DNA of 64,000 nt from an uncultured Bacteroidales bacterium (GTDB taxonomy: Bacteria > Bacteroidota > Bacteroidia > Bacteroidales > WCHB1-69): assembly GCA_947165685.1 (NCBI GenBank), contig CAMVBK010000005.1, forward strand, positions 23,071 to 87,070, given 5' to 3'. A model generated the notes under the pieces. That model saw nothing but the letters and a program-made list of their open reading frames with translations. It was not told the origin of the DNA and did not search any database. This document shows, piece by piece, positions 22,728-40,029 of the stretch. Within the stretch, counting starts at the first letter, position 1; each line of letters begins with the position of its first letter. Made by a program: the position numbers and the translations under genes.

Positions 22728-22799
22728 CCTTGAGCAGCCTCGAAGAGGCAAAACGCACGAAGTGCAATTAACTCCACACAGGCGAAGCGCAGTGTGGGG
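22728..22799 (+). ncRNA. triple-hairpin ~70 nt element, copy 1 (3' of tolC)
   Basis: gcctc-gaa-gaggc, gcac-gaa-gtgc, ctccacac-N12-gtgtgggg (one U-G pair on the plus strand only). Confidence 0.45.
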
Positions 22800-22880
22800 C
22801 GTGATGTGGGAGTTGGCTTTGGGCTGGTAACAGTGGAATCCGCAGTGGGATAGTGCGTCGGAAGCGCGAGAATGAACACA

Positions 22881-25800
22881 CTAACTCTTCACAAACTTCC
22901 TCATCAATAGGCCTTCTGAAGTATACACTTTTATCAAGTACGTTCCTCGTGCTAATTGCGACACATTGATTCCTAAGTCTTGGTCGCAATCGATAGTCTG
23001 TACGAGTCTTCCTGTCATGGAGTAAATCTCCATTCTTTGTATTTGGCAATCGATCGGAACAATCAAGTGGAAGCAGTCTGCTACAGGGTTGGGATAGAGC
23101 GAAACAGCGGGCGTTTCTTTTTCCTGAATTCCTGTTTCCCGAGAGACCGAAATGTGCAACCGATAGGTTCCCGTTGCACCATCTTGCTGTGGTAAAACGC
23201 GATAACAGAGTCTTCCTCCATGTTCAACAGTCATGGTGGGTATGTAGTTCCCATAAACCGAAGACCAGTTGACGCCATCGTCTGACACGGATATTTTTGC
23301 ATCCACGGAGCAGCTTGGATCATTCGCGCAATCGAATATCACGGCATCCACATAATATGTGTAATCAGCGGGAAAATCAATTTTGTAATGATCCACATCG
23401 GAAGATGTATGGAATGTTGCGTCAGCGACAACAGAAGAGGACTGTTCGCTGATTGTGGCCAACAAATAGGAAGTGTTCACTGTATTGTTCGGCTCGTACA
23501 TGTCCGGTTCTATTCCATCCAGCCGAGCAACACTAATCTGCAACTTGTAGGTTCCGATTTCATAGTTAGTATAAGGTAATACTCTGAAATACACAGTTCC
23601 ACCATCCGGAAGTGTCAATTCAGGCATTGAACTTCCATGATTTGAAGACCAATCATTCCCATCGGTGGAAGTGGCAAAATGTGCATCCGCTGTGTAATTA
23701 TTGTCATTATAGCTATCCAGCAAATCAGCATTTACAGTATATGAATATCCTGCCGGGAGGTTGATTTTGTAGTAATCATTATCGGTGGTGACATGGAAAT
23801 TCGCGTTGATATTGTAATTTTGGCTGTTGGAATTAACGGTGCCGAGATTGTAAGCAGCAGCAGAGGTATTGTTTGGTTCGTATTGGTCGGGATTGATAGA
23901 CCTAATTACGAGAGTATGCAATGAATACGTACCTATATCACCTTGACTTGTAGGAGTCACCTTGAAATATACAGTACCGCCATCACTCATCGTAGTTCCA
24001 CACTGATTCAAAATAGCTGTTAAAACACTTGCATCATAATCGAAAGGGCCTTGCCAAGATGTTGTATTGTCAACCGAGAAATAGAACTTCGCATCCACAG
24101 TATAAGATATGTCATCATTATAATACATATCTTGCAGGACGGGAACAAAATCATAGGAATAACCAGACGGAAGTACTATTTTATAATAGTCCACATCAGT
24201 AGTATTATGGAAGTTTGCCCCATTCGTATTCACTTCGGCCATATTATCAGTGAAAACCGGAGTAAGCGAATATGCGGTTGAAACTGTATTGTTGGTTTCA
24301 TAAATATCCGCCATTGGGGCATCAAGAATAGTGATTCGCACTGGATTTTGGTAGTATGTGCTTCCCGCATAAATCCAATATGACGATCCTTGCGGTTTAT
24401 AACGTAAAGCCAACAAATAGTCTCCCGATGGTGCGTTAATCACCCCAGTAAAATCAATCCCGTCTGGAGCGTATGACATGGCAGGAATAGGAGATGAAAA
24501 GATTGTGTCTTGGATGGTTTGGATATATGAACCAGTTAGAGAGAACAGTGCCACTGAAACAGCGCCATAATAAGGATACGTAGTCGCATTTGCAGGACTG
24601 ACATTAACTGTCAATGAATGACCTGAATAAATCGGTTCTTCGGACAAATAAAAGTCAGAATATGTTTCAATATCCGCCGAATAATGTACGGTAAACGATG
24701 TGAAATTGATGTTGTTGATATTATCTTTGACAATTCTTGATGTTGCAGGATCATTCAGATTGGTGGTAGATGTGATAAAGACATAATACACTCCAGGGCC
24801 TATTGGCAATCCGCCTTGAACTGTAAAACTTTTGTTCACATAGTGATTGGGAGTAATTGTGGTATAGTTTGATGGTATTTCTGCGACAACATTTCCATCT
24901 ATGTCAGACACGATTGCCACCAGATAACCGTTGAAATTGGCATTACCTGTATTTGCCACCGCGCAATTGATTGCAATTGGATGATTGGGACCAAACAAAT
25001 AGCTGGTATCGGATGTCGCCAATGTTCCATGCATAGTGAGATCGTATGCAGGATGAACCGTTTGGTTAATTGGCGAAATGTGAATAACAGCTTGCTGTTT
25101 ATACGAATAATTGCCCAAACCAGCACCGGAACCAACCTCTGTTGGTGTGAGGGCAGATAAGGTGTAGTAATACCCGTTTGCGACACCACCCCATCCCCAA
25201 TTAAAATGGAAATAATCATTACCTGTATACCCATCGCAGACAAACGAATGACCACCTTCTCCACTATTATTTCCCGCTCCCGAATACAAAACTACTCGAC
25301 CTGAATCCAATTCATTTTTTAAGATAGCTGTCCAAGTTGCATCCGAATAATCAGACTTCCGTATTCCTTGAATATTATCACTATAATTGAAATAATTCTT
25401 TAATGCATTTTCAGCACAAGGCAATCCAGGTATATATATTTCGTTTGCCCCTATATATTGTGTGTTATATGCACCAGATATTTGAGTTCCATATTGCATA
25501 TCAACACTCACTCCACACCTATACATTAGAGAGTAAATAGCATTTGCTTGCATTTGTGTGTAAGCTGAAGCATCGTAAGTGTTAAGCATTTCGTTCCATA
25601 AAAAGATTGTCTCAAAATTGGCACTTTGTACTCCATAATTTTGATCAACGTATGTATGAGACCCCATTCCCATTTGTGGGTGCTCCCAATATTTCATCAC
25701 TTGTGCCATGGCCGTGGCCACACATCCTGTCAATGTATTTGATCCAACATCATAATCGTATGGACAGGAATAATTGTAAGGGTAGCCTTGATTCCACTCG

Positions 25801-26282
25801 GTCGTCAGAAGTGGAGCCACACTGGTTGTACTTCTCGTGGGAAGTGCTTCTCCTGCCAACAATTTTCCCCATGTGCTTCGGACTTCATCTGTACCTCTGA
25901 CCATATCTGCACGTTGGATTTCTTGTTCGTAGCCTTTCAGCCAATCCCTGAGATTTGGCGGCATATTCTCAATTTGGAAAGGATTCTCCATGGAATACCC
26001 CAAGATAGGTACAGCATTGTCGTTTGCCGAGACAATGACAAAGCCTTTGCCGTCTTCCGCATTAAAGATGTAAAAACCCGAAAAAAGAGTGTCCATTGGG
26101 AGAAGACGAAATTCCGGTGTCTCCCGTTGGAAACGCAGTGTTTTGCCATTCACCGTTGGCCCCGTATTGTTCTGTTTCCAGAAATTGATGGCCACCCTTT
26201 TGGCTGTTAAGGTGTCAACAGGGTTGGCAACAGCCAAGTTGGCGCTGATAATCAGTGTTAACACCAATGTGATTTTCTTCAT
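22881..26282 (-). CDS. T9SS-sorted C10-family cysteine peptidase (streptopain/interpain-like) with three PPC-like repeat domains
   Basis: - Signal peptide, then an N-terminal propeptide-like region (FYIFNAEDGKGFVIVSANDNAVPILGYS).
- Catalytic Cys context TEWNQGYPYN..TGCVATAMAQVMKYW.
- His/Trp context GGHSFVCDGY..FHFNWGWGG.
- Three repeats of ~110 aa (YEPNNT..FH.T.D.DYYKI..P.GY.Y...GTY.L.I).
- C-terminal CTD VSLYPNPV..GTYLIKVYT. Confidence 0.88.
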   Translation of the reverse strand: MKKITLVLTLIISANLAVANPVDTLTAKRVAINFWKQNNTGPTVNGKTLRFQRETPEFRLLPMDTLFSGFYIFNAEDGKGFVIVSANDNAVPILGYSMENPFQIENMPPNLRDWLKGYEQEIQRADMVRGTDEVRSTWGKLLAGEALPTRSTTSVAPLLTTEWNQGYPYNYSCPYDYDVGSNTLTGCVATAMAQVMKYWEHPQMGMGSHTYVDQNYGVQSANFETIFLWNEMLNTYDASAYTQMQANAIYSLMYRCGVSVDMQYGTQISGAYNTQYIGANEIYIPGLPCAENALKNYFNYSDNIQGIRKSDYSDATWTAILKNELDSGRVVLYSGAGNNSGEGGHSFVCDGYTGNDYFHFNWGWGGVANGYYYTLSALTPTEVGSGAGLGNYSYKQQAVIHISPINQTVHPAYDLTMHGTLATSDTSYLFGPNHPIAINCAVANTGNANFNGYLVAIVSDIDGNVVAEIPSNYTTITPNHYVNKSFTVQGGLPIGPGVYYVFITSTTNLNDPATSRIVKDNINNINFTSFTVHYSADIETYSDFYLSEEPIYSGHSLTVNVSPANATTYPYYGAVSVALFSLTGSYIQTIQDTIFSSPIPAMSYAPDGIDFTGVINAPSGDYLLALRYKPQGSSYWIYAGSTYYQNPVRITILDAPMADIYETNNTVSTAYSLTPVFTDNMAEVNTNGANFHNTTDVDYYKIVLPSGYSYDFVPVLQDMYYNDDISYTVDAKFYFSVDNTTSWQGPFDYDASVLTAILNQCGTTMSDGGTVYFKVTPTSQGDIGTYSLHTLVIRSINPDQYEPNNTSAAAYNLGTVNSNSQNYNINANFHVTTDNDYYKINLPAGYSYTVNADLLDSYNDNNYTADAHFATSTDGNDWSSNHGSSMPELTLPDGGTVYFRVLPYTNYEIGTYKLQISVARLDGIEPDMYEPNNTVNTSYLLATISEQSSSVVADATFHTSSDVDHYKIDFPADYTYYVDAVIFDCANDPSCSVDAKISVSDDGVNWSSVYGNYIPTMTVEHGGRLCYRVLPQQDGATGTYRLHISVSRETGIQEKETPAVSLYPNPVADCFHLIVPIDCQIQRMEIYSMTGRLVQTIDCDQDLGINVSQLARGTYLIKVYTSEGLLMRKFVKS

Positions 26283-26314
26283 ATATGATAAAAATTGTTA
26301 ATGGGATAGTCTTG

Positions 26315-27469
26315 TTATTTGTCGGATTCGACAGGAACTCTGACCTGACGAGAAGAAATGTTCCTACGGACTTTGGCTACCTTTTGGTACTTTGGAACTA
26401 TCCGAGTTCGGGGATATTCCACGTCTTTGTAGGTTATGGTTTCAAGAAGAACCGCCACTTTAACATTCACTCTGATTTTTCCAATTGGATTATCATTTCG
26501 TAAACAGATGTAATACGTTCCTTGAACATCGTTCGCATCTACAAATCTTCCGCAAGCCCCCGGACCATCACCTGTTTGCATACAATAGGCACGTTCCCCA
26601 TTCACGAATGCATTTCTATCGCTCCTGTTAGAAATAATAGCCCATATAACATTACCCACATCACCTCTGTCAGGAACAAGTAAATTAGTGATTTCTCCTG
26701 CAACGAAAGCCCCTAACGGACTCATTGTTGTTCCTGCTATTGCTGAAGCACCTTTCACCAACATGTTCTTGTTTTTGCTCCACCAATTGTTAGAATGGTC
26801 TCCTACACATATCCAATACCCCCAACCGACCACTCTTTTTCTCTGGTTGGCACTGGCGGTATTTTGTGGTAAATTAAAGGTAATACATTTGCGAGGATTC
26901 TCATTTAATATCATTCCAGCAACTGAGCAGATTTCTTCATTTCGATCTAATAACATCTCTTCCGATACCTCTTTTGATGCCACTTCTTTCATCGTCTCTA
27001 CGTAATGCACAGTGTCATGCCCTACAAGCGAATCCTCCGAATAGTGTGTGTATGTCGTGTCATACAATGTCTTCCATTGCCAGCCTGTGTTAAAATTAAC
27101 CGTTTCTTGAGATTTAGGGATTCGTTTTATGTGCAGGGAGCACATTTTACCGCCCATACCGTTGGTTATCTTGAATAGATATACCTTCGTGGAGAAAACA
27201 TTGACTTTATAATCAGTCAGTCTTGCTGTGAACTGGCTTGTTTTAACTTGGTTAGGCAGTTCCACAATCTCGAATTGCACACCCTTTCCCTTAGCAAGTT
27301 CAAAGTCTACAACGATTACGTCTCCTTCAGCAAAACTGTAGTAGAATTCTTCAGTACTGCCTCCATTCATCTTAAAAGACAAATCAGCGACTTGAATGGA
27401 CGGCAGTGCTAACGCGAAGGTCGTACTCATTATCAAAGAAACACATTCTAAAAAGCGTTTTTGAATCAT
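26315..27469 (-). CDS. hypothetical secreted protein (384 aa), co-oriented and tightly spaced upstream of the C10 peptidase
   Basis: Hydrophobic N-terminus, 32 nt gap to the peptidase start, no recognisable motif. Confidence 0.6.
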   Translation of the reverse strand: MIQKRFLECVSLIMSTTFALALPSIQVADLSFKMNGGSTEEFYYSFAEGDVIVVDFELAKGKGVQFEIVELPNQVKTSQFTARLTDYKVNVFSTKVYLFKITNGMGGKMCSLHIKRIPKSQETVNFNTGWQWKTLYDTTYTHYSEDSLVGHDTVHYVETMKEVASKEVSEEMLLDRNEEICSVAGMILNENPRKCITFNLPQNTASANQRKRVVGWGYWICVGDHSNNWWSKNKNMLVKGASAIAGTTMSPLGAFVAGEITNLLVPDRGDVGNVIWAIISNRSDRNAFVNGERAYCMQTGDGPGACGRFVDANDVQGTYYICLRNDNPIGKIRVNVKVAVLLETITYKDVEYPRTRIVPKYQKVAKVRRNISSRQVRVPVESDK

Positions 27470-27498
27470 TTCTCTGGAATTTTTGACATGATATTTTT

Positions 27499-28008
27499 TT
27501 ACTCGTCTTGAGCTGTATTATTAGCTCGCATCAATTTAACAAATTTAATGGTAGTTCTGTTTACTGTTCCATCCTCAACAACAACGCATTCTTCAGAATT
27601 TTTTATGGCCTCTACTGTTCCTTTTTTGTATCCAAATATTGTTTTCCACATTACGTGGTCACCTACTTTGTACCCTTTATAATTAGCATTCTGTTTTAAC
27701 CCCCAAACATCTCCTTCTATAGCGAAATATTTCCCTTTAATCATATAAATCTTTGCGTTCATCAAAAAGACACCACCGGGAACTTCTCTTACAGTTTGTT
27801 CTAATGCGTCTTCCAATGTCTCTGCTTTGCTCTTTGTTATTTTCTTTTGATTTCCCCGTGCATACGCTGCGATGAGTTCATAATCTTCTAGATTACCAAT
27901 GTTTTTTGATGAAATCATGTTGATTTTACCAATTTGAATCACCTTTTGAGCGTCACTATAATTGACAATTACAAACAAGGCTATTATTGTCAAAACCAAT
28001 TTCCTCAT
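27499..28008 (-). CDS. hypothetical small secreted protein (169 aa from MRKLVL)
   Basis: Signal peptide MRKLVLTIIALFVIVNYSDAQ, 29 nt gap to the next gene, first gene of the three-gene minus-strand unit. Confidence 0.6.
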   Translation of the reverse strand: MRKLVLTIIALFVIVNYSDAQKVIQIGKINMISSKNIGNLEDYELIAAYARGNQKKITKSKAETLEDALEQTVREVPGGVFLMNAKIYMIKGKYFAIEGDVWGLKQNANYKGYKVGDHVMWKTIFGYKKGTVEAIKNSEECVVVEDGTVNRTTIKFVKLMRANNTAQDE

Positions 28009-28317
28009 TTTATTCCTCTGCCGTTTGTTTCCCTGTCGGCGCATCAGGGTTCAATCGCTCCCCAGTGCCACAAGAGCAAACCACAAAAGAAGCGTGGCAC
28101 TGACATACCACTTCTTCTATCGGAGGTCGTGAGAATTACCTTGTAACGGAGAATGTAATAATCAGCCCACGCTATACGCGCGAACCTTTACACTCTCTTG
28201 CGTTACAATTCTGGAAATTTCTCACGTTTCCGATAGCAAGACGAGCATAACGCTTCGTTTAATTTCAATAAAAATTTCGCCAACCGTTGGGCAAATCGCA
28301 CTTCCAGGTTGGCGAGG

Positions 28318-28325
28318 CAAAGATA
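28318..28325 (-). promoter_or_regulatory. -7 box TAnnTTTG, about 310 nt upstream of the first gene of the C10 operon
   Basis: Minus strand reads TATCTTTG. This implies a long untranslated leader. Confidence 0.4.
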
Positions 28326-28490
28326 GAATTTTTTTCATTCAGTCTTGCCAGAAAAAAGTGTGCGACATTTTTCCTCGCACACATGCAGAAAACCACACAA
28401 TAATGGCAGAAAAACATCGGAAAACAAACAGTTAGTCACTTTTTTGGAAAAAATCGGGTCGCTAGGGACTGGCTTTTCGGAAAATTGTTG

Positions 28491-28498
28491 TATTTTTG
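28491..28498 (+). promoter_or_regulatory. -7 box TAnnTTTG for the Panacea-domain gene
   Basis: TATTTTTG, 12 nt before ATG 28510. Confidence 0.55.
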
Positions 28499-28509
28499 CC
28501 GCGACAAAA

Positions 28510-28971
28510 ATGGAAGATATGGCATACAAAGCTATTGACATTGCGAAGAAACTGATCAAGATGGCGGATGACGACATAGCCAACGGCGGTGACAACATCA
28601 CCAATCTCAAGTTGCAGAAACTGTTGTATTATCAGCAGGGTTACCACCTGGCCGCCTTCGACACGCCTTTATTTGACGAGTCTGTGGAGGCATGGATATA
28701 CGGTCCGGTTGTGCCAGTCGTTTATGACTATTTCCAACCATACGGTGCCACAAGTCTGCCTGTTTGCGACGATGTTGTTGTTTTGGGAGACAAGGAAGAA
28801 TCCCTTTTCTATCAAGTATTTGACGCTTATAGGGAATTTTCAGCCATAGGTCTGATGAACAAAACACATACAGAACGTCCCTGGTTGAGCGTCAGCCCTC
28901 ATGACCGGGGCAGTGTAATCCCTGTGGAAACCCTGAAATCGTATTTCAAAACACAATATTTTGAAAACTAA
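28510..28971 (+). CDS. Panacea/DUF4065 domain protein (SocA/GepA-like putative antitoxin)
   Basis: NITNLKLQKLLYYQQGYHLAAFDTPLFDE..EAW.YGPVVPVVY is the characteristic DUF4065 core. Start placed at MEDMAYK because of the -7 box. Confidence 0.8.
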   Translation: MEDMAYKAIDIAKKLIKMADDDIANGGDNITNLKLQKLLYYQQGYHLAAFDTPLFDESVEAWIYGPVVPVVYDYFQPYGATSLPVCDDVVVLGDKEESLFYQVFDAYREFSAIGLMNKTHTERPWLSVSPHDRGSVIPVETLKSYFKTQYFEN

Positions 28972-29353: not shown

Positions 29354-29414
29354 AAGTACATGTAGCGACTCGCGCCTCTGTGTTGGCGGAGAAAATACAG
29401 TTTTTTTTCAGTCC

Positions 29415-29453
29415 TGTAAACATCCCTTACACCCACTGTAAGATTTTCTTACA
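29415..29453 (+). promoter_or_regulatory. tandem dyad TGTAA-N7-TTACA x2, copy B
   Basis: TGTAAacatcccTTACAcccacTGTAAgattttcTTACA. Confidence 0.55.
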
Positions 29454-29506
29454 CCCTCCATGTGCCAACATCCGTCGAACATCTCACAACCAGCATGTTA
29501 CGACTT

Positions 29507-29522
29507 TGGCATCCTTTTGGCA
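29507..29522 (+). promoter_or_regulatory. candidate sigma-54 promoter, copy B, upstream of the HlyD-family gene
   Basis: TGGCATccttTTGGCA has GG-N10-GC spacing and lies 54 nt after the dyads. Confidence 0.5.
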
Positions 29523-29547
29523 TCCTCTTACGGTACCGAACCCACGA

Positions 29548-29613
29548 CCAGCCTCGGAGAGGCTGAACGCACGCAGTGCAATTAACCCCACACAAGCGCA
29601 GCGCAGTGTGGGG
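29548..29613 (+). ncRNA. triple-hairpin element, copy 2 (leader of the HlyD-family gene)
   Basis: gcctc-gga-gaggc, gcac-gca-gtgc, ccccacac-N12-gtgtgggg; ends 24 nt before ATG 29637. Confidence 0.5.
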
Positions 29614-29636: not shown

Positions 29637-30887
29637 ATGGACAGAAAGATAGAACCAACCAAAGGAATCCGCAAACTCTTCACCCGCAAGGCACTGCCCT
29701 ACTGGGGCGGGGCGCTGATGCTCGTCTTCATCGGGTGGCTGCTGCTGCGGGACAACGCCTCGCGACTGCGCACGAACGGCGACACCTTCACCGTCGGCGA
29801 GGTGCGGCGCGGCGAGTTCAACGACTATATCCGCGTCACCGGGCAGGTGGTGCCGATGACCACTGTGCAGCTCAGCCCATTGGAGGGCGGTGTGGTGCAG
29901 CAGATTGTGACGGAGGAGGGCTCGCACGTCCGCGAGGGCGACATCATCCTGATTCTCAGCAACGAAGCGCTCGACATGCAGATTCTCAACGCCGAGGCCG
30001 ACCTCGCCGAAAAGGAGAACATCCTCCGCAACACGATGATCGCCATGGAACAGCAGAAACTGAACCTCCAGCAGGAGAAGCTGCAGCTGCAGATGGAGGT
30101 GCGCCGCAAAAAACGCACCTACGAGGCGAAAAAGTCGCTCTATGACGACAACCTCGTCGCGAAGGAGGAGTATTTGCAGGCCGAGGAGGAGTACCAGTTG
30201 GCCACCGACCGGCTCAAGCTGGTCGAGAACCGCGCCAAGCAGGACAGCCTCTACCGTTCGGTGGAAATCCGGCAGATGCGCGAAAGTTTGGAGAACATGC
30301 GGCTCAACATGCAGATGATACGTCATCGCAAGGAGAACCTTACCATCAAAGCCCCGATTGACGGCGAGCTTGGCCTTGTGGATGTGGTGCTCGGACAGTC
30401 TGTTGCGGCGGGCAGCAAGGTCGGGCAGATCAACAACCAGGACAACTACAAGCTCGAAGCTCTGATTGACGAGCACTATATCGACCGGGTGAGCGCGGGA
30501 CTGACCGCCGATTTCGAGCGGCAGGGCGAAAAGTGCAACGTGCTGATACGCAAGGTCTATCCCGAGGTGCGCGACGGCAAGTTCAAGGCCGACTTCAAAT
30601 TCCCCGACGGTCAGCCAGAGAACATCCGCACCGGCCAGACCTTCTACCTGAACCTGCAGCTCGGTCAGCCGGTGGAGGCCGTCCTCATTCCGCGCGGCGC
30701 CTTCTACCAAAAGACCGGCGGTAAGTGGATCTACGTGGTCTCCCCCGACGGCAAGCGTGCCGTGAAGCGCGACATCCGCATCGGTCGCCAAAATCCGCAG
30801 TACTACGAGGTTTTGGAAGGTCTTGAACCGGGCGAGAGGGTGATCACGTCGTCGTATGACGGGTACGGGGAGGCGGAAGTATTGGAA

Positions 30888-30899
<12 letters not shown>
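29637..30899 (+). CDS. efflux periplasmic adaptor (HlyD/MacA family membrane fusion protein)
   Basis: N-terminal TM, lipoyl-like motif, long coiled coil (LQQEKLQLQMEV..), beta-barrel C-terminal part. Confidence 0.88.
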
Positions 30900-30943
<44 letters not shown>

Positions 30944-31025: not shown

Positions 31026-32453
31026 CTACTGGTTGTAGGCAACACTTTCCTCTGCCAAACGGTTAAGTGCATCAATGTCAAGGTCTGGGAGTTCTATTTC
31101 GTCGTCATCGTCAAGATCAAGCAGGAAACCCATGTAAAGAGGAAGTGTCAGCACCGCGTCGTGACGTCCTACATTATAATTGCCGAACTTTATGGCATGG
31201 GTTACGTGGTAATGATCGGGATTGCCTAAGACGGTGGAAAGACTTTTCGTTTTACCCGATTTTGCTTTGACTTCCAAGGGCAGGCATTCGCCGTGATGAC
31301 GAACCAGAAAGTCGAGTTCAAGTCCGAACTCCTTGTGGAAATAGTAAAGGCGTTTCCTTTTTTTGCAGAGGAAGTCGGCCATCAGATTTTCAAAGATAGC
31401 CCCTTTGTAACCATACAAGTTGCCTTGAAGCACGTCGGCGCGAGTGCCGGGATCAAGCAAAGCTACCAAGAGGCCGATGTCTGTGACATAAACTTTGAAA
31501 CAGTCTTCGATTGCGTTACCGGATAAGGGAAGCTCGGTCGTCGTGGTGTTGTAGCAGCGGCGTATGATACCGGCATCCTCAAGCCATTGCAGGCATCCGA
31601 GATATTGAGAGGAACGGGCACCTTTCTTGATAGTCGCGTATTGGAATTTCTTATTCTCTTTGGCCAGTTGCCTCGGTATGGATTCAAAACATTCCCGTAT
31701 ATGCGGCTTGTCGTTGTCATCTGCGTATTTAACCATATCATCCTCATATTCAGCGATAATCGTACTGAACACCTCGCCTACCTGGCCGATATGTTTGGTT
31801 TCAAGAAACTTGTTGACCACCTCTGGCAGACCGCCCACAACGATGTACCGGTAAAGTAATTGCATCAGGGTCTGATGTATGCCATCGGGGACGGGTGTTT
31901 CATGCAGCAAACAGTCCGATAATGTGTCAATAATACCTTGCCGGATGCCATTGGCCCAGAGAAACTCCTCGAAGTCAAGAGGATACATATCCACAATCGT
32001 CTCATACCCAACAGGGACGGAGTTTTTTCCAAGTTGCTCCTTGGCTTTTTTCTTCTGCTTTTCACCGTAACCTTTCACACCGAGCAGAGAACCTGTGGCT
32101 ATGACATCATACCGGCCGTCGATCTTGAACGATTTCAATGCGGTTCTGGCATCGGGGCAGTCTTGAATCTCATCGAAAATCAGGCATGTTTCGTAAGGTA
32201 TGAATTCCGCTTCGGGCATAATTGCGGAGAGATTCATCATCATCACATCCACCTCTTTAGAACCGGTGAAAGCAGCGGATTTTTCAGGCTGGAGTGCGAA
32301 GTTGATGTAAATAACACTTTTGTAGTTCACCTCCGCAAAATGTTGAACAATAAAGGTTTTTCCGCATTGCCTTATTCCTTTTATGACCAGCGGTTTGTGG
32401 TTTTCTGTGTTCTTCCATTTGATGAGGATATCCTCAATCTTTCTCTTCAGCAT
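31026..32453 (-). CDS. solo AAA ATPase with DUF4143-type C-terminal region
   Basis: Walker A GIRQCGKTF, Walker B LIFDEIQ, C-terminal ..ELDFLV..G...PLEVKA..G pattern. Confidence 0.85.
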   Translation of the reverse strand: MLKRKIEDILIKWKNTENHKPLVIKGIRQCGKTFIVQHFAEVNYKSVIYINFALQPEKSAAFTGSKEVDVMMMNLSAIMPEAEFIPYETCLIFDEIQDCPDARTALKSFKIDGRYDVIATGSLLGVKGYGEKQKKKAKEQLGKNSVPVGYETIVDMYPLDFEEFLWANGIRQGIIDTLSDCLLHETPVPDGIHQTLMQLLYRYIVVGGLPEVVNKFLETKHIGQVGEVFSTIIAEYEDDMVKYADDNDKPHIRECFESIPRQLAKENKKFQYATIKKGARSSQYLGCLQWLEDAGIIRRCYNTTTTELPLSGNAIEDCFKVYVTDIGLLVALLDPGTRADVLQGNLYGYKGAIFENLMADFLCKKRKRLYYFHKEFGLELDFLVRHHGECLPLEVKAKSGKTKSLSTVLGNPDHYHVTHAIKFGNYNVGRHDAVLTLPLYMGFLLDLDDDDEIELPDLDIDALNRLAEESVAYNQ

Positions 32454-32476
32454 AATGACACGATTTTTTCAGCCTG

Positions 32477-33310: not shown

Positions 33311-33507
33311 ACACTTTTCCGTTAAATTCAAATCTGCAAACATACACTTTTCTGGAAAACAATCGGATGAAATAATACACTTTTCCGTCAATCATACTTA
33401 GTTCTTGTACCAGCTCGAAAAAAGTGGACACGAGAGCCTTGTCCCAAAAATAGTATTTTTGCCATTATGAAAGTTTCAATGATGACCTTTAATAAAATGA
33501 TGATACC

Positions 33508-33546
33508 TGTAAAGAAACCTTACACCTGCTGTAAGAAATCTTTACA
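33508..33546 (+). promoter_or_regulatory. tandem dyad TGTAA-N7-TTACA x2, copy C
   Basis: TGTAAagaaaccTTACAcctgcTGTAAgaaatctTTACA. Confidence 0.55.
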
Positions 33547-33598
33547 GCGGCCCTTTTGTTAGATGTTTAGAGAATTGACAACCAATGGTTTATGTTTT

Positions 33599-33614
33599 TG
33601 GCACGGAAAATGAT
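33599..33614 (+). promoter_or_regulatory. candidate sigma-54 promoter, copy C
   Basis: TGGCACGgaaaATGA, 53 nt after the dyads; the -12 region is weak. Confidence 0.4.
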
Positions 33615-33664
33615 GTATGAGAATGATGAAGAACGATGTATGGATGTTTATAAAAAAAATAAAT

Positions 33665-33736
33665 CCTTAAGCAGCCTCGGAGAGGCAAGACGCGCGAAGC
33701 GCTAATAACCCCATACAAGCGAAGCGCAGTGTGGGG
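33665..33736 (+). ncRNA. triple-hairpin element, copy 3 (leader of permease 1)
   Basis: gcctc-gga-gaggc, gcgc-gaa-gcgc (compensatory relative to gcac/gtgc), ccccatac-N12-gtgtgggg (U-G pair on the plus strand). Confidence 0.5.
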
Positions 33737-33752
33737 CTTAAAACAAAAAAAT

Positions 33753-36128
33753 ATGAAAAGTTACCTCAAATTCCTCAGTCGCAACAAACTCTACACCGCC
33801 GTCGAAGCGGTGGGCCTGGTCGTGAGTCTCGCGTTCGTGATCTTGATTGGCAGCTACGTGGCCCAACATCTGGCCGTCGTGAATGAGAATCCCGCCCATG
33901 ACCGCATTTACAGCCTCGGTAACACGTTACACTTGGGACTGTCTGTTTGGGATAAAGAGTCTCTGGAAACCAATATTCCTGAAATTGAGTTGATCAGCAG
34001 AATCACGGGGAAGGATGGAAAATTAGTTTACCAAAGTAATGCCTATCCTGCCAACATCAAGTTCGTTGACCAAGACTTTTTCAATCTTTTTCCGTATTAC
34101 ACGTTTGTGGAAGGAAGCAGTGACGGATTTGACAAATCCAACAACGCCATTATCAGTGAAACTATGGCCAGACAGTTTGAGGACAATGGGAACTTGTTGG
34201 GCAAAACCATCATCATCGATGAAAAACCATACATCATTTGCGGCATCATGAAAGATGTCCAAAATTCCTTGATTCAGTATTTTGACGTGCTGCTTCCTTT
34301 TGATGACAAAAGCTATGAGGGACAAAAACCTTTCAAGATAATCCAGGGTGTGCTCACCCTCTTTCAGAGAATGGAGAACACGGATGAGGAGGCTTTCAAA
34401 AACAAGGTACTTGACCTCTGCAATCAAAATTATAGTTCTTGGGGTGAAGAGTGGTTAAAAGGGCTTGTGGTGTACAATTATAAGGAGATGTTCTTCAATT
34501 CCTATTCCCATTCGAATAAAAGTATTCACACGGGGAACCTCACCAACATCTGGATCCTTACGGCCATCGTTATCCTTCTTTTGCTGTCGGCTGTCATCAA
34601 CTACATCAACCTCAGCATGGCTTTGGTGAGAAAACGTGCCAAGGAGATGGCCACCCGCCGGCTTTTGGGAGCACAGAAACTGTCCGTCATGGGCAAACTT
34701 ATTGCCGAATCTGTGTTGTTCACAGCAGTATGTTTCGGTTTTGCCTTTTTGTTGGCTTACGCTCTGGTGCCCACGATGAATCGGCTGTTAGTCAGCAATA
34801 CCCCTGATGCCGACATCCAGCTACGGCTGTTGATGACGCCTGCATACATAGTGGCGTATGTGAGTGGTGTCCTGCTACTGGGAGCGCTTTCGGGCTGGTT
34901 GCCAGCTTTGTTCGCCTCCCGTTATGCCCCGATTGAGGTGGTTCGCGGCGCGTTCCGCCAATACAACAAAATGTGGTTCAACAAGATATTCATCGTTTTT
35001 CAGAGCGTGCTTTCGTTTGTGCTGATCGCCTTGGCTATCGTGATGGAGGTGCAGATGCGGCACATGGTTAACCGCCCTATTCATCTTCAGACAACAGATC
35101 TTTTTGTGATTGATGAACTTTATCCTCCAAGAGCGTATTTGCCCGTTGTAGAAGAACTCAGGTCGTTGCCATGTGTTGAGGAAGTCGGTATCGGACAAGG
35201 TTATCCTGGGAAAATCAACTATAGCTTTGGCATTCCGACTATGGAAGACGATTCAAAAAGCGAGATAAAAATGGTAACGGTTCTGTGCGATTCAATCTAT
35301 TTCCAGTTGTTGGGGTTTGAGGTGGTTGAAGATTTCGGCCATCCCAAAGCCAATTCGCTATGGTTAGGAGAGCATGTTTTGATTGAAAGCGGTATTTCCG
35401 ACACTTCCACTTCGTTTTTGAACAATATAGCTGCATATTTCAGCAACTATTATTTCATGAACGTGGATTATATTGGCGGTGTTGTGCATGATTTCCCGGT
35501 TAAAACGGCTGCCTGTGCCGACGGCGACTATAATTTAAATGGTGGAGTTTATGTGTTTGATACAGAGAAGTTTGGTTATGGGGTCGGCTTGCTCGTCAAG
35601 ACCACAGGCGACCATGCGGAAGCTGAAAGGCAGATTATGAACCACTACAATCAGTGGGTGGAGAAAAAGGAGGGCGTAGGCAAGGATGTCAAGTGCGGGT
35701 ATGCGGATGATTTGATGTTGGAGCAGTTGGAGCCTGCCAAGCGCACCGTGCGGCTGTTGGAGCTTTTCATGGGGCTGTCGGTGCTACTCTCCTTGCTCGG
35801 CCTCATCGCCATGAGCACCTACTACAGTGGCGAGAACACCCAGGGCATCGCCATCCGCAAGGCTTTCGGCAGCGATGTGCGGCGCGAGCTGTGGCGCACG
35901 GTCAGAGGCTACATGCTCCTCGTCGGAATCGCGGCAACGATCGGTGTGCCTGTCGCTGTCTGGCTAAGCGGGAAGTACTTGGAACGTTTCGCCTACCGCA
36001 TCGAGCATTACGGCTGGATCTTTGTCGTGGCCGTCCTACTCACCGCGCTGATGGCCTTCCTCTCGGTGTTATGGCAGACGCTTCGCGCCGCGAGGACGAA
36101 CCCTGCGGAGGCGTTGAAGAAGGAGTGA
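33753..36128 (+). CDS. ABC transporter permease, long FtsX/MacB-type (permease 1)
   Basis: MKSYLKFLSRNKLYTAVEAVGL.. N-terminal TM, two FtsX 4-TM modules, two large extracytoplasmic domains, C-terminal ..LRAARTNPAEALKKE. Confidence 0.9.
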   Translation: MKSYLKFLSRNKLYTAVEAVGLVVSLAFVILIGSYVAQHLAVVNENPAHDRIYSLGNTLHLGLSVWDKESLETNIPEIELISRITGKDGKLVYQSNAYPANIKFVDQDFFNLFPYYTFVEGSSDGFDKSNNAIISETMARQFEDNGNLLGKTIIIDEKPYIICGIMKDVQNSLIQYFDVLLPFDDKSYEGQKPFKIIQGVLTLFQRMENTDEEAFKNKVLDLCNQNYSSWGEEWLKGLVVYNYKEMFFNSYSHSNKSIHTGNLTNIWILTAIVILLLLSAVINYINLSMALVRKRAKEMATRRLLGAQKLSVMGKLIAESVLFTAVCFGFAFLLAYALVPTMNRLLVSNTPDADIQLRLLMTPAYIVAYVSGVLLLGALSGWLPALFASRYAPIEVVRGAFRQYNKMWFNKIFIVFQSVLSFVLIALAIVMEVQMRHMVNRPIHLQTTDLFVIDELYPPRAYLPVVEELRSLPCVEEVGIGQGYPGKINYSFGIPTMEDDSKSEIKMVTVLCDSIYFQLLGFEVVEDFGHPKANSLWLGEHVLIESGISDTSTSFLNNIAAYFSNYYFMNVDYIGGVVHDFPVKTAACADGDYNLNGGVYVFDTEKFGYGVGLLVKTTGDHAEAERQIMNHYNQWVEKKEGVGKDVKCGYADDLMLEQLEPAKRTVRLLELFMGLSVLLSLLGLIAMSTYYSGENTQGIAIRKAFGSDVRRELWRTVRGYMLLVGIAATIGVPVAVWLSGKYLERFAYRIEHYGWIFVVAVLLTALMAFLSVLWQTLRAARTNPAEALKKE

Positions 36129-36185
36129 ACGGCGAACAAACGTCGGCGAATTTTACGAATTATGCGAATTATATAAAGACATATT

Positions 36186-36251
36186 CCTTGAGCAGCCCCG
36201 AAGGGGCAAGAGCTTGGTAGCCCCATACAAGGCGAAGCCGCAGTGTGGGGG
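36186..36251 (+). ncRNA. triple-hairpin element, copy 4 (intercistronic; middle hairpin degenerate)
   Basis: gcccc-gaa-ggggc (compensatory relative to gcctc/gaggc), ccccatac-N13-gtgtgggg. Confidence 0.45.
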
Positions 36252-36283
36252 ACATCAGAACGAACAATTTAATACCCATTATT

Positions 36284-36964
36284 ATGATCAAAGTACAAAA
36301 CCTCACCAAAATCTTCCGGACGGAAGAAATCGAGACCCTCGCGTTGGACGGTGTCTCGTTCGAAATACAGGACGGCGAGTTCGTCGCCGTGATGGGGCCG
36401 TCGGGCTGCGGCAAATCCACGCTGCTCAACATCCTCGGCCTCTTGGACAACCCCACCTCGGGCAGCTACGAGCTGTTGGGGCAGGAAGTCGGCAAGTTGA
36501 AGGAGCGGGAGCGCACCAAATTCCGCAAAGGCAACATCGGCTTCGTGTTCCAGAGCTTCAACCTCATCGACGAGCTGAACGTCTATGAGAACATCGAGCT
36601 GCCGCTGAAGTACCTGAACATCAGCGCCACGGAGCGCAAACAGCGCGTGACCGCCCTCATGGAACGCATGGCCATCAAGCACCGGGCCAAGCACTTCCCG
36701 CAGCAGTTGTCGGGCGGACAGCAGCAGCGTGTGGCCATCGCCCGCGCCGTGGTCGCCAACCCCAAGCTCATCCTCGCCGACGAGCCCACCGGCAACCTCG
36801 ACTCCAAGAACGGCAAAGAGGTGATGGACCTGCTCACCGAGCTGCACGACGAGGGCACCACCATCGTGATGGTCACCCACTCGCAGCGCGACGCGGGCTA
36901 CGCCGGCCGCGTCATCGACCTCTTCGACGGCCGCATCGTGGAGGATGTTCTGCCCGAACTGTGA
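36284..36964 (+). CDS. ABC transporter ATP-binding protein (MacB/LolD-type)
   Basis: Walker [11 protein letters not shown]-loop, [14 protein letters not shown], Walker [13 protein letters not shown]. Start placed at MIKVQNLTK. Confidence 0.93.
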
Positions 36965-37004
36965 TGCCATATTAAATTTGGTTAATAACATATTGAAGGG
37001 ATTT

Positions 37005-37033
37005 TGTAGAGACGTACCATGCGCGTCTCTACA
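37005..37033. repeat. GTAGAGACG palindrome, copy 3 (leader of permease 2)
   Basis: TGTAGAGACG-taccatgcg-CGTCTCTACA. Confidence 0.8.
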
Positions 37034-37071
37034 GACCCACCTTAAATTGCAGAAACCAAACATCAATTAAT

Positions 37072-39414
37072 ATGTTTCGAAAAAGTAATCTCTTAATCCA
37101 AATACTCTCCCTCGGGGTGGGTCTTGCAATCGGCATCGTGCTGATTGCCAAAGTGTGCTTCGAGTTGTCGTACGACAGTTTCTATAAAGACGTGGACCGT
37201 ATATATTGTATCCGTTCTGGTTACGAACTACAGGGCGAATCCAGAGATTTCCCTCAGGTGAGTGGTGCGGTAGCATTTGGCTTCAAGGCAGAGGTGCCGG
37301 GAGTGGAAGAAGCCACTCGAATGACTTTCTATTTCAATAGTGACCGTTATTTGGACGAGGATGGCAATGTCATCACCGGAAATCTCCGTTTAGCCGATTC
37401 ATGCTTCTTCCGCGTTTTTGACCGTCCCATTCTGGCTGGCAATCCGGAGAAAGTGCTGTCAGAGCCGCTATGTTTGATGGTGTCGGAGTCGTTTGCCAAA
37501 AAAATGGGTGGCGTGGAGGAATGTATTGGCAAAATCATCTACAACGAGGATGTCCCTTTGTTGAAAATGACTATTGAGGGCGTATTCAAGGATTTTCCTA
37601 AAAATGGTTCTATAGACGCCGACATTTTGCTGTCGATGGAGAGTTATTCAAAAAGCAGCACGGAGAACTGGGTCGGTAACGACCGCTATGTGGGATTTGT
37701 GAAATTGCAACAAGGTGTTGATCCGCAATCGCTTAACGATGCCATCCGTAGGATGCAGGAGGCTCATCAGCCTTTGGAGGAGTTTGAGAAGAACGGCATG
37801 AAGCTGTGGTATTATCTTGCACCATTTGGTAAAACCCACCTCAAAGAGTCTTCGGTGCATTCAATGGTAATACTGCTTTCCGTTATTGCAACAATGCTGA
37901 TTGTCATCAGCTTACTCAACTATATCCTGATCACAATTTCATCTATGGTGCATCGAGCCAAAGAAATTGGGGTACGAAAGTGCTATGGTGCGAACGCTTT
38001 CAGTATTTATGGATTATTGGCTCGGGAGTCGATAATACATCTATTATTGGCACTCGTTTTGGCAGCTGCCATTATTTTTGCCACAAAAGGATTGATACAG
38101 AACTTGTTGGGTGTGCCATTTGGGACATTACTTGTTCCCCAAAGCATTTGGACTATTGTGGCTGTGCTGTTGCTTGTGCTGTTCGTTTCCGTTTTCGTTC
38201 CTGCGCAGCTTTACATGCGCATTCCCGTTTCGGTGGCCTTCCGCAATTATACGGAAAATTCGCGGCGATGGAAAATAGGACTGCTTGGCGTTCAGGTGTT
38301 TGTCAATGTATTTGTCATTTCGATGCTGATGGTCATCGCTTCGCAATATCATAAAATGATGAACGACGACCCGGGCTACAATTATGAGAATGTGTTGTTT
38401 GTGGACATGTACGACGGAAATCAAGAGGCTCAACAACGTGTGGTGAATGCTCTTGGCCAACTTTCTGAAGTGACACACATTGCAGCAAGCTATGGTCTTC
38501 CTTATATTTGGTCGAATGGCGACAACATATATCTTCCCGGTGATGATCGTGAATTGTTCAACGTGGCCGACCAATACGAGGCCACAGAGCAATTCTATGC
38601 TCTTTTCGGGATGGAGTTTGTTGACGGTCGCGCACCGGCCGATTCCAATGAAGTGGTGGTGAGCGAGAGTTTTGTGAAACGAATGAATGACTTCACGGAC
38701 TGGAGCGATGGAGCGGTGGGGAAACAGATTATGATTACCGGACACGAAAACTCTTTGACAAATCTTAAATCATTCACGATCACAGGTGTTTACCGTGACT
38801 ATCGTCTGGGTAGCCTCTTGGATATGGATACCCGACCGAGCGTGCGTTTCTACGGCAGTTTGGAGGACGGAGAGTCTTATATGCCGCATCTGGTTTTCAA
38901 AGTGAATAAAATGGATGAAACCACGATTGGGAAGCTGAAGGAAGCCATTTCTAAGGCCCTTGATGGAAAAGATGTACAGTTGAAAGTATATGCGGACGAA
39001 ATGCATTCAGCATACGAAGATAGTCGCAAGATGCGCAACACCGTTTTCATCGGTTCCATTTTTGCATTGATGATTGCCATGTTGGGCCTCATCGGTTTCA
39101 TACGCGATGAGTCGAGTCGTCGGAGCAAAGAAATGGCCATCCGCAAAATTAACGGTGCTACAGAGAGAGATGTACTAAGTATTTTTGCTTGGGGTGTGTT
39201 GAAGTTATCTCTTATTATGTCGATTTTTGCGTGTGCTTTCGCCTATTTCGTTGCCGACAAATGGCTTGAACAGTTCGCCGAGCACATCAGCCTCTCGCCG
39301 TTGTATTTCATCTTTGGCGCAACGGTGGTTCTTCTCATCGTAGCAGTCGTAGTCGTTATGAGTAGTGTCAGAATTGCGAGGACTAACCCTGCTGAGGCGT
39401 TGAAGAAGGAATAG
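37072..39414 (+). CDS. ABC transporter permease, long FtsX/MacB-type (permease 2)
   Basis: Same architecture as permease 1; C-terminal ..IARTNPAEALKKE. Confidence 0.9.
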   Translation: MFRKSNLLIQILSLGVGLAIGIVLIAKVCFELSYDSFYKDVDRIYCIRSGYELQGESRDFPQVSGAVAFGFKAEVPGVEEATRMTFYFNSDRYLDEDGNVITGNLRLADSCFFRVFDRPILAGNPEKVLSEPLCLMVSESFAKKMGGVEECIGKIIYNEDVPLLKMTIEGVFKDFPKNGSIDADILLSMESYSKSSTENWVGNDRYVGFVKLQQGVDPQSLNDAIRRMQEAHQPLEEFEKNGMKLWYYLAPFGKTHLKESSVHSMVILLSVIATMLIVISLLNYILITISSMVHRAKEIGVRKCYGANAFSIYGLLARESIIHLLLALVLAAAIIFATKGLIQNLLGVPFGTLLVPQSIWTIVAVLLLVLFVSVFVPAQLYMRIPVSVAFRNYTENSRRWKIGLLGVQVFVNVFVISMLMVIASQYHKMMNDDPGYNYENVLFVDMYDGNQEAQQRVVNALGQLSEVTHIAASYGLPYIWSNGDNIYLPGDDRELFNVADQYEATEQFYALFGMEFVDGRAPADSNEVVVSESFVKRMNDFTDWSDGAVGKQIMITGHENSLTNLKSFTITGVYRDYRLGSLLDMDTRPSVRFYGSLEDGESYMPHLVFKVNKMDETTIGKLKEAISKALDGKDVQLKVYADEMHSAYEDSRKMRNTVFIGSIFALMIAMLGLIGFIRDESSRRSKEMAIRKINGATERDVLSIFAWGVLKLSLIMSIFACAFAYFVADKWLEQFAEHISLSPLYFIFGATVVLLIVAVVVVMSSVRIARTNPAEALKKE

Positions 39415-39427
39415 TTACTTGAAAAGA

Positions 39428-39751
39428 TCAATTGATATGTGCAAAATGGTCCAAATAACGGTTGAGCGCGGCAAGGGTGTCCAAATCCCCATCAAGGAAA
39501 GCCCCGCAGTAAAGTTCCCGGAATCGGCAGAGCTCTTTCAGGAGGGCTCTGTGGTTGGGTTGCCCAAGCCTTCCGTATGCGATGGTCAGGTCGACGAGCT
39601 CTTGCATCCTTTCGAAAGCCTTCTCAGCGTTGTCACGACGGCCTTTAGCGAGCCATTTCGTGGCACGATAAGTTTCGCTCCCAATATTGGCCATCTGTTT
39701 TGCAAAGGGCATCTCGGCCCATGCTCCGTTACTGAGTGTCTCGTGCTGCAT
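39428..39751 (-). CDS. hypothetical 107 aa helical protein
   Basis: Intact ORF. A conserved 24-codon 3' relic of a paralogue occurs at 44123-44208. No motif recognised. Confidence 0.5.
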   Translation of the reverse strand: MQHETLSNGAWAEMPFAKQMANIGSETYRATKWLAKGRRDNAEKAFERMQELVDLTIAYGRLGQPNHRALLKELCRFRELYCGAFLDGDLDTLAALNRYLDHFAHIN

Positions 39752-39920
39752 TATTCAACGAATTTTGAAACGATGGATTTTATTTGTTCCCTGACTTCCG
39801 GATTCTCAACATCACGGCTGCGGTTGCCTTATCGGCCACACACTTAATCATATCAATGAAAGTATTGGATGCCAATTCTTTAAGTTGTTCTCTTGATATT
39901 TTTTCAGTAAGTACCTGCAT
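39752..39920 (-). pseudogene. possible decayed small gene (DUF5674-like N- and C-terminal pieces in different frames)
   Basis: MQVLTEKISREQLKELASNTFIDMIKCVADKA.. in one frame and ..RDVENPEVREQIKSIVSKFVE* in another. The family resemblance is from memory only. Confidence 0.3.
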
Positions 39921-39958
39921 AAATCATTTTTTCGGCAAAAATAATAAAATATCAACTT

Positions 39959-40029
39959 CCTTAGAGCAGCCCCGGAGGGGCAAAACGCGCGCAGCGCAAT
40001 TAACCCCACACAAGCGCAGCGCAGTGTGG
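39959..40029 (+). ncRNA. triple-hairpin element, copy 5 (leader of permease 3)
   Basis: gcccc-gga-ggggc, gcgc-gca-gcgc, ccacac-N12-gtgtgg; ends 18 nt before ATG 40048. Confidence 0.5.

Follow-up and report, generated by a model that had tools for sequence, protein, structure and literature searches.

A dispersed triple-hairpin repeat of ruminant-gut Bacteroidales, probably of the REP type and linked to Y1 nuclease genes

A stretch of 64,000 nucleotides from an uncultured Bacteroidales bacterium (contig CAMVBK010000005.1, positions 23,071 to 87,070, hereafter called the window) contains a cluster of MacAB/TolC-type efflux genes, in whose spacers lie five copies of a short element composed of three successive hairpins. 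An initial annotation, made from the sequence alone, regarded this element as a structured RNA associated with the efflux genes. Our analysis indicates that the five copies belong to a dispersed, modular repeat family of ruminant-gut Bacteroidales that is linked to Y1 (HUH) nuclease genes. The family is probably of the repetitive extragenic palindromic (REP) type, and its copies would be carried passively in transcripts, where any influence on mRNA would be no more than generic. The genes and copies of the region are given below; each copy spans from its 5' box or first stem through the end of hairpin 3, and the scores in bits are those of the covariance model described further on.

19035-22719: genes for a sigma-54 activator of the NtrC type (19035-20369), a histidine kinase and a TolC-like protein (21352-22719)
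22726-22799, + strand: copy 1, 97.7 bits; box TTCCTTGAG 22726-22734, hairpin 1 22737-22749 (GCCTC-GAA-GAGGC), hairpin 2 22755-22765 (GCAC-GAA-GTGC), hairpin 3 22772-22799 (CTCCACAC ... GTGTGGGG, apical GC-GAA-GC); 7 nt past the stop codon of the TolC-like gene
22881-26282, - strand: next gene, convergent with the TolC-like gene, for a C10 peptidase with a type IX secretion system (T9SS) sorting domain
29549-29613, + strand: copy 2, 87.6 bits, without the TTCCTTRAG box; hairpin 1 extended to 7 bp (CAGCCTC-GGA-GAGGCTG, 29549-29565), hairpin 2 29569-29579, hairpin 3 29586-29613; ends 23 nt before the next ATG
29637-30899: gene for the HlyD-type adaptor
33663-33736, + strand: copy 3, 100.3 bits; box ATCCTTAAG 33663-33671, hairpin 1 33674-33686, hairpin 2 33692-33702 (GCGC-GAA-GCGC), hairpin 3 33709-33736 (CCCCATAC ... 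GTGTGGGG, one T·G pair); ends 16 nt before the next ATG
33753-36128: gene for the first of three FtsX/MacB permeases
36184-36250, + strand: copy 4, 62.3 bits; box TTCCTTGAG 36184-36192, hairpin 1 36195-36207 (GCCCC-GAA-GGGGC), truncated alternative hairpin 2 36210-36220, hairpin 3 36221-36250 (CCCCATAC, apical GGC-GAA-GCC); begins 55 nt past the stop codon of the FtsX gene (36128) and ends 33 nt before the next ATG
36284-36964: ABC ATPase gene
37072: start of the second FtsX/MacB permease gene
39957-40031, + strand: copy 5, 86.5 bits; box TTCCTTAGAG 39957-39966, hairpin 1 39968-39980, hairpin 2 39987-39997 (GCGC-GCA-GCGC), hairpin 3 40004-40031; ends 16 nt before the next ATG
40048-42420: gene for the third FtsX/MacB permease

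A fourth FtsX/MacB permease gene, further downstream (45428-47887), has no copy in front of it. The placement of four copies shortly before start codons, pointed out in the initial annotation, holds for copies 2 to 5 (23, 16, 33 and 16 nt), and copy 1 precedes no gene.

The five + strand copies with compensatory stem changes were recovered by pattern matching and by a covariance model, and the - strand of the window holds none. The hairpin-1 pattern CAGCCYCGRAGRGGC gave five exact matches on the + strand and no match on the - strand, against 0.73 in shuffled sequences (the shuffle count allowing up to two mismatches); a single two-mismatch match at 11589 (-) is unrelated. Four matches were obtained with the hairpin-3 pattern, against 0.00 expected. 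The covariance model, named R1, was built from 93 family members and run over the whole window with filters off; only these five copies were convincing, at 62-100 bits. A weak match at 59679-59746 (-) is not a member of the family and represents a different hairpin module (GGGCTGAAAGCCC, then CCCAGG..GAACGAAGTGAG..CCCTGGG), which replaces or joins the triple hairpin beside an identical ABC ATPase gene in two related contigs (L200 and L202).

The stem variants of hairpin 1 (GCCTC/GAGGC in three copies and GCCCC/GGGGC in two) and hairpin 2 (GCAC/GTGC in two copies and GCGC/GCGC in two) are as initially described. For hairpin 3 the arms CCCCACAC...GTGTGGGG and their variants CTCCACAC and CCCCATAC were also found as described, but the supposed simple 12-nt loop contains an apical mini-hairpin (GC-GNA-GC or GGC-GAA-GCC) framed by a fixed AA and a fixed GCA. 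All loops of the five copies are of the form C-GNA-G. Hairpin 2 of copy 4, which had been called degenerate, corresponds to a truncated, different hairpin (AGCTC-GGTA-GAGCT), the intact version of which is present in L080. In copy 5, the 3' arm of hairpin 3 reads GTGTGGAA, and two basal pairs are broken. This copy looks like a deletion derivative, since its relatives in L015 and L199 have an extra module between two hairpin-3 3' arms. In copies 1, 3, 4 and 5 an AT-rich box and then TTCCTTRAG extend the unit on its 5' side. Among the unpaired bases, those conserved are CAG ahead of hairpin 1, TTAA ahead of hairpin 3, and the AA and GCA within hairpin 3.

As RNA, the + strand is predicted to fold into the three hairpins with -27 to -33 kcal/mol and z scores of -2.0 to -3.9, and as DNA this strand folds equally well into the same three hairpins (z -1.2 to -4.8). 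Folding of the - strand is less clean in four of the five copies. Conservation of the stems by paired changes, as proposed initially, was evaluated on 139 distinct copies collected around Y1 genes through the protein and not through the sequence of the element, with an alignment fitted to the model. In this protein-selected set 98.8% of the stem cells pair, both-sided changes occur in 13 of 19 pairs, and the covariation score is 0.312 compared with 0.154 for shuffled alignments (none of 500 reached 0.312) and at most 0.074 for slid partners. Four pairs covary cleanly in a second, pattern-selected set (UA 66 / CG 25; GC 56 / AU 32; CG 82 / AU 7; CG 56 / GC 33). The stem of hairpin 1 varies freely around an invariant C-GRA-G loop. 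Because covariation is strong in both sets and the hairpin 1 loop is invariant over a covarying stem, the hairpin structure is under selection.

Strand-specific wobble pairs had been taken as an argument for RNA. One strand is clearly the folded one, with 114 G·T cells against 17 A·C cells. However, one pair, position 6 of hairpin 3, whose commonest state beside Y1 genes is T·G, supplies 82 of these 114 cells, and without this position the numbers are 32 and 13. The wobble therefore cannot tell RNA from + strand single-stranded DNA (ssDNA), as it consists mostly of one conserved T·G pair that fits ssDNA recognition and RNA equally well. Loops of the d(C-GNA-G) type form exceptionally stable DNA mini-hairpins, which is compatible with folding as ssDNA and is not decisive.

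The distribution of the element was determined by scanning one genome per species. It was found in more than 114 stretches among the matches listed. Except for two chance hits, these stretches come from about 40 metagenome-assembled genomes (MAGs) of ruminant-gut Bacteroidales, many contigs per MAG carrying the element. Only four viral contigs with the element were found. Model R1 detected 153 copies in 723 kb of element-bearing loci, located in spacers. Eighty proteins encoded downstream match 133 Pfam families, including TsaD, NadA, AcrB and HerA, and the efflux-type matches among them amount to 4 for ABC_tran, 3 for HlyD and 2 for FtsX. Since the downstream genes are so diverse, the association with efflux genes noted initially is local and not a property of the family.

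These data bear directly on the view of the initial annotation, namely that the element is a dedicated cis-regulatory RNA (a leader, an attenuator or a protein-binding site) controlling the efflux genes. The covarying stems, the well-defined + strand RNA folds and the short distance of 16-33 nt between four of the five copies and efflux gene start codons speak in its favour, as does another MacAB-like operon (L046) with a copy before each cistron. We nevertheless consider such a role quite improbable, given the variety of downstream families, copy 1 with no gene after it, and the inverted copies and tandem arrays found around Y1 genes (see below). No terminator/antiterminator-type alternative pairing was seen, and the + strand hairpins precede A-rich, T-poor sequence without the U-tract layout of an attenuator or intrinsic terminator. 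A terminator scan made no + strand call at any copy and a single - strand call, at copy 1. No Rfam family reached its gathering score in the window, no match overlapped a copy at E up to 10 between 22600 and 40200, and five related loci gave none at E up to 1; in the initial annotation, too, no named motif had been recognised. Hammerhead-like and boxA/boxB nut-like motifs, compared by eye only, fitted poorly and were dropped.

A further point against a leader comes from closely related strains. Contigs encoding an identical ABC ATPase protein differ in both spacers of its gene, which contain the triple hairpin, the triple hairpin with an additional module, a GTAG palindrome, or heptamer repeats alone. 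Orthologous spacers exist in filled and empty forms. The FtsX paralogue that follows the identical ATPase gene, and the order of the paralogues, also differ between strains (L199-L203). Compared with L024, copy 3 has a left flank that is 99.5% identical, but the FtsX gene on its right reaches only 87% (window 33445-33943). In contig L204 the ABC ATPase gene follows the left flank of copy 5. In two copies another hairpin module is nested in the loop of hairpin 1. Such free exchange would not be expected of a dedicated regulatory leader but is possible for a generic hairpin, and it argues against a dedicated attenuator or riboswitch as well; the leader or attenuator role proposed initially is not supported. 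Metatranscriptome 5' ends were sought in public contigs, but where contigs stop at the element the cause is a failure of assembly at repeats. Two contigs (L206 and L207) begin inside the element.

The mosaic junctions could also be expected if the element were a site acting at the DNA level, either for recombination or cassette exchange (similar to integron attC sites and driven by a Y1 enzyme) or for binding of a nucleoid or topology protein. The near-identical left flanks that meet diverged genes, the junction in L204, the varying order of FtsX paralogues and the single orientation of all copies between cistrons are in line with this possibility. On the other hand, ordinary homologous recombination between repeats accounts for the mosaics, and most copies lie beside housekeeping genes rather than cassettes. 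The attC sites are likewise strand-specific, folded ssDNA sites in one orientation between promoterless cistrons; they consist, however, of a single bipartite imperfect palindrome recognized by the recombinase IntI, whereas the element comprises three hairpins that are independent of one another. The region contained neither an integrase gene nor a bipartite palindrome of the attC type, and the neighbours of the copies are mostly housekeeping genes. A DNA-level site is in our opinion very improbable.

Orientation was judged only in spacers between genes of the same direction, using two independent crude gene calls, one of them based on the longest open reading frames (ORFs). Sense and antisense copies numbered 72 and 3 with one call and 63 and 4 with the other, so that 94-96% were in the sense orientation, and three of the four antisense copies of the latter set seem to be gene miscalls. 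The same-strand placement with neighbouring genes, already remarked upon in the initial annotation, thus extends to the family. Divergent spacers contained 8 to 21 copies and convergent spacers 7 to 8, without depletion of the divergent ones. The median distance was 33 nt to the next ATG and 40 nt from the previous stop codon, i.e. the copies fill short spacers. In this group of bacteria the gene-strand bias is weak, and replication-linked insertion could not give a value of about 95%. Because the observed value exceeds what such insertion could give, the sense bias suggests either that transcripts are under selection or that the mechanism is linked to transcription. Termination by antisense copies was considered as an explanation for the bias; support for it was weak, as only copy 1 was flagged on the - strand.

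A co-opted expression cassette would be another explanation for the orientation. According to this hypothesis the class with the AT-rich box and TTCCTTRAG is a mobile promoter, a 5'-terminal stabiliser of the downstream gene, or both, and only sense copies near start codons persist because they start or protect downstream transcripts. The 5' extension (TATATAAAA, 5 nt, TTCCTTRAG) is indeed found in the dispersed copies only and not beside Y1 genes, and the sense bias, the median of 33 nt to the ATG and the undepleted divergent spacers (21 against 8 convergent in one gene call) would be expected. The sequence 3' of the element, with 39% A and 13% T, would also suit the unstructured leaders of Bacteroidetes. 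However, the AT box is unlike the -7 motif of Bacteroidetes promoters, TAnnTTTG. The copies are equally near the upstream stop codon and therefore merely fill short spacers, convergent sites such as that of copy 1 occur, copy 2 is similarly placed without the box, and the spacers tolerate unrelated modules or none. On balance a cassette of this kind appears unlikely.

A putative promoter motif lies next to one copy. The only exact match to the sigma-54-type -24/-12 sequence in the window (TGGCATCCTTTTGGCA, 29507-29522) is situated just upstream of copy 2, 27 nt ahead of its hairpin 1 and inside an 11-nt direct repeat (TTTGGCATCCT twice, 29505-29526). Since this sole exact match adjoins copy 2 and an NtrC-type activator is encoded at 19035-20369, the HlyD-type gene may have a sigma-54 transcript that starts with copy 2 at its extreme 5' end. 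A sigma-54 promoter ahead of every copy was rejected; an exact match is present at copy 2 only, and the total of 18 matches compared with 15.6 is at chance level.

Further evidence for the REP-like interpretation comes from the surroundings of Y1 nuclease genes. In the contig L044, five tandem + copies precede and two - copies follow an ORF of 145 amino acids (aa), whose product is a Y1_Tnp protein (Pfam E 4e-20). A second Y1 paralogue of the same contig, 60% identical, and a third Y1 gene in L088 are likewise flanked by inverted copies. The three Y1 proteins, used as queries, yielded 375 metagenome relatives, on contigs that judging by their names stem from ruminant or other gut samples; 80 loci were retained. 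Model R1 detected 302 copies in the 266 kb of these 80 loci, compared with 5 in the 64-kb window. In 47 of 57 loci the closest copy upstream shared the + strand with the gene, usually at 79-95 nt from the ATG. Downstream, the closest copy was inverted (- strand) in 43 of 58 loci, usually at 42-50 nt past the stop codon. The full symmetric layout, H1-H2-H3-H4, gene, H4'-H3'-H2'-H1', was found in L121. Same-strand arrays also occur upstream of Y1 genes, with about 25 tandem units of 82-nt period in L166 (1-1925) and five units of about 120-nt period in L044 (4436-4983). Inverted repeats that bracket a Y1 gene constitute the layout of the REPtron, i.e. REP sequences with their REP-associated tyrosine transposase (RAYT) (PMC6006769), and here the copies bracket the gene at fixed distances. 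The annotation had named dispersal in the manner of a REP as an outcome that would speak against its own proposal; the dispersed repeat was indeed found, with inverted copies bracketing Y1 genes, but the random orientation was not.

The Y1 proteins are 149-151 aa long and contain DHVH or DHIH, YIxxQKEHH and a conserved C-terminal tail, EEYRxFLxENGxxIxEEYFLKD; the W motif is GW[SGT] and not WQ. On these sequence features the protein matches TnpAY1 subclass 1.2, as its length, HuH and Y motifs and tail, together with a low copy number and diverged paralogues, fit Table 1 of the published survey (Quentin et al. 2018, PMC6006769). In that survey the median length is 148 aa, compared with 149 aa here, the motif is DH[IV]H, and the subclass is low-copy, not insertion sequence (IS)-like, present in Cyanobacteria and Bacteroidetes, and listed as 'REP: no' (PMC6006769). 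According to the survey, REPs are absent from this subclass and terminal secondary structures generally so, whereas the subclass 1.2 genes studied here lie between inverted multi-hairpin units, of which further copies are dispersed genome-wide. Subclass 2.6, also present in Bacteroidetes, and class 3 are similar in that their Y1 genes are flanked by atypical hairpins found elsewhere in the genome, but they differ by their motifs (NH[LIV]H and YIH[QN]NP for 2.6, YV..EQ for class 3) and their greater length of 178-179 aa (PMC6006769).

The best score of the Y1 protein was obtained with the NCBIfam IS200 model (51-58 bits for a cut-off of 55), and its PDB matches, which are weak, are the IS200-type transposases 2f4f and 2fyx. 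The element could accordingly be imagined as a miniature derivative of an IS200/IS605 element, i.e. a miniature inverted-repeat transposable element (MITE) of the palindrome-associated (PATE) type, oriented by insertion into the lagging-strand template and not by transcription; the strand specificity of the hairpins would fit as well. Several observations make this scarcely credible. The Y1 flanks are inverted repeats of one unit, whereas the ends of IS200/IS605 are two different structures on the same strand. The two paralogues in one contig are just 60% identical, so they are not IS copies. The ORFs read beside the three Y1 genes in L044 and L088 included no tnpB, the metagenome loci not having been checked. 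The orientation tracks the local gene direction at 94-96%, a value exceeding any replication bias possible in Bacteroidales. Finally, the subclass 1.2 signature (Y---Q--HH) belongs to a group described as not IS-like (PMC6006769).

Comparison with the REPtrons of Proteobacteria, composed of REPs or bacterial interspersed mosaic elements (BIMEs) and RAYT/TnpAREP, reveals both likenesses and differences. Both are short, many-copy, extragenic hairpin repeats that form mosaic clusters and tandem groups, contain a low-copy Y1/HUH gene within inverted copies and are presumably transcribed along with neighbouring genes. Classical REPs also have G·T stem pairs and sub-families with alternative complementary stem residues, as in the present family (PMC3733652). 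In contrast to the single palindrome of 20-40 nt, the unit described here has about 75 nt and three (or four) hairpins with invariant C-GRA-G loops, and no GTAG or CGTC tag was found at the palindrome foot. Its Y1 protein is of subclass 1.2 (IS200-like) and not of class 2 (RAYT), and its dispersed copies are sense singletons with an extra 5' box in spacers that include divergent ones. They do not form REPINs (inverted REP doublets folding into a long hairpin), as the copies in the window and the majority of those dispersed elsewhere occur singly or in tandem on the same strand. The Correia elements of Neisseria, the pneumococcal BOX and the SMAG repeats of Stenotrophomonas are also modular, intergenic, co-transcribed repeats, and RNA hairpins of this sort can alter the stability or processing of transcripts. 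REPs themselves have been discussed as RNA elements (PMC3733652). Correia elements, with terminal inverted repeats and TA duplications, and BOX, with no known transposase, differ from the element, and none of the three has the Y1-gene layout or the C-GRA-G triloops of this family. The papers searched contained no description of REP-like repeats of Bacteroidales, nor of repeats tied to subclass 1.2.

Several observations weigh against classifying the element with the REPs. The REPs described so far are found preferentially in unidirectional and convergent spacers, frequently as inverted doublets (PMC3733652); the near-absolute sense orientation and the undepleted divergent spacers are atypical of them, as is the added AT-rich/TTCCTTRAG box. 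The spacers of related strains differ by replacement and by heptamer repeats with no definable boundary, and no clean insertion with target duplication was found. The NCBIfam RayT model (REP_Tyr_transpos) gave only 21-27 bits for a cut-off of 80, which does not place the protein in class 2, and the published survey assigns no REPs to subclass 1.2 (PMC6006769). There is no Y1 gene within the window, the bracketing having been seen in metagenomes and in the genomes of relatives. Copies that flank Y1 genes represent a sister class with CACCATAC/GTGTGGTG in hairpin 3 and no TTCCTTRAG box, and a Y1 gene cognate to the class of the window was not among the loci sampled.

Part of these observations would be explained by an undescribed REPtron-like system, in which a subclass 1.2 nuclease inserts the unit into the sense strand through ssDNA exposed by transcription, and the unit has been co-opted as a 5'-UTR (untranslated region) or promoter module that reshuffles cistrons, in this case the MacB-type permease paralogues. 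If true, this would account for the sense orientation of about 95%, for the AT-rich/TTCCTTRAG box and for the mosaic junctions at the copies. We regard this system as a tentative proposal of low probability. The element is best read as a new REP-like variant, built of several hairpins and associated with a Y1 subclass 1.2 gene.

For the REP-like family we propose the following sequence of events. The unit comprises three hairpins on one DNA strand, with invariant C-GRA-G loops, covarying stems and a sequence-conserved hairpin 3 bearing a TTAA foot, an AA/GCA internal loop and one T·G pair. By analogy with RAYT and IS200/IS605 enzymes, the folded + strand would be the target of the subclass 1.2 nuclease, which would thereby spread the copies or maintain them, and recombination between copies would then reshuffle the spacers. 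Copies in the spacers of the MacAB/TolC-type efflux genes are most probably co-transcribed and would form stable stem-loops in the RNA. If they influence expression, the effect would be a generic one, for instance protection of mRNA ends or provision of processing sites, as reported for REPs; control that responds to a signal and is specific to efflux is not part of the proposed role.

For annotation, a label of efflux riboregulator is tempting but wrong, and the covariance model can be used to mask or label hundreds of spacers in rumen Bacteroidales MAGs. Repeats of this kind also break contigs during assembly. With respect to mobile DNA, hairpin repeats appear here as partners of subclass 1.2, published as having none, and the REP/RAYT concept would thereby reach Bacteroidales, where another enzyme lineage and a unit of several hairpins are involved. 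The near-absolute sense orientation raises the question of whether selection on transcripts or the insertion mechanism is responsible. The rapid exchange of spacer modules beside identical genes marks hotspots of rearrangement in the efflux and permease repertoire.

Other genes and repeats were observed in the same region and in related genomes. Three genes break up the efflux cluster (28345-28971, 31026-32453 and 42640-44061), namely a SocA/Panacea-domain antitoxin-like ORF and two AAA ATPase genes, of the AAA_14/DUF4143 and ATPase_2 types. A similar ATPase gene follows a unit of about 190 nt in L038 (4670-4870). This unit exists in many near-identical copies, also in L006, L018, L019, L035, L042, L048, L052 and L107 (MAG UBA3816), and has a long closing stem (GCTCTAGTTTGATAAAAGACTGATT ... 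AATCAGTC..CTAGAGC) and an inner stem TCTCAAT/ATTGAGA. It holds hairpin 1, hairpin 3 and an extra GCGTGTC-GAA-GACACGC hairpin, has no Rfam match, and could be a larger structured relative of the element. A small palindrome, GCCCG(A/C)AGGGC followed by GGGGTAG, is often situated just upstream of the triple hairpin (e.g. in L034, L073 and L079), and is nested in the hairpin 1 loop of two copies (L021 6307-6427 and L046 1092-1209).

A second repeat family, separate from the element and present in the same genomes, is the GTAG palindrome mentioned above, a perfect palindrome GTAGAGACG-N9-10-CGTCTCTAC. In the window it is located at 21337-21364, at the start of the TolC-like gene, and at 37006-37032, before the FtsX gene at 37072, and 29 more were found in 20 loci. 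When these palindromes are counted, nearly every cistron of the efflux cluster has a hairpin repeat in front of it.

Finally, many spacers of the window consist of tandem repeats of 6-8 nt (821-864, 2645-2775, 6672-6790, 7759-7838, 10632-10694, 30887-30942 and 49214-49247). The spacer repeat units are AGTTAT x7, GGTTAGTG x13, AGACTT x8, GTTTAAG x6, GTTCTAA x8, ATAGTC x10, GAATGAT x6 and TAGTTAG x5. Similar repeats (AATGTAG, TTAGCAG, CCTTAAA and TTTGTGA) occupy the 'empty' spacers of related genomes. GTAG is present in several of the repeats. Within a long - strand ORF (57642-59252), a 42-nt unit is repeated 4.8 times in tandem at 58866-59068, with 92% matches.

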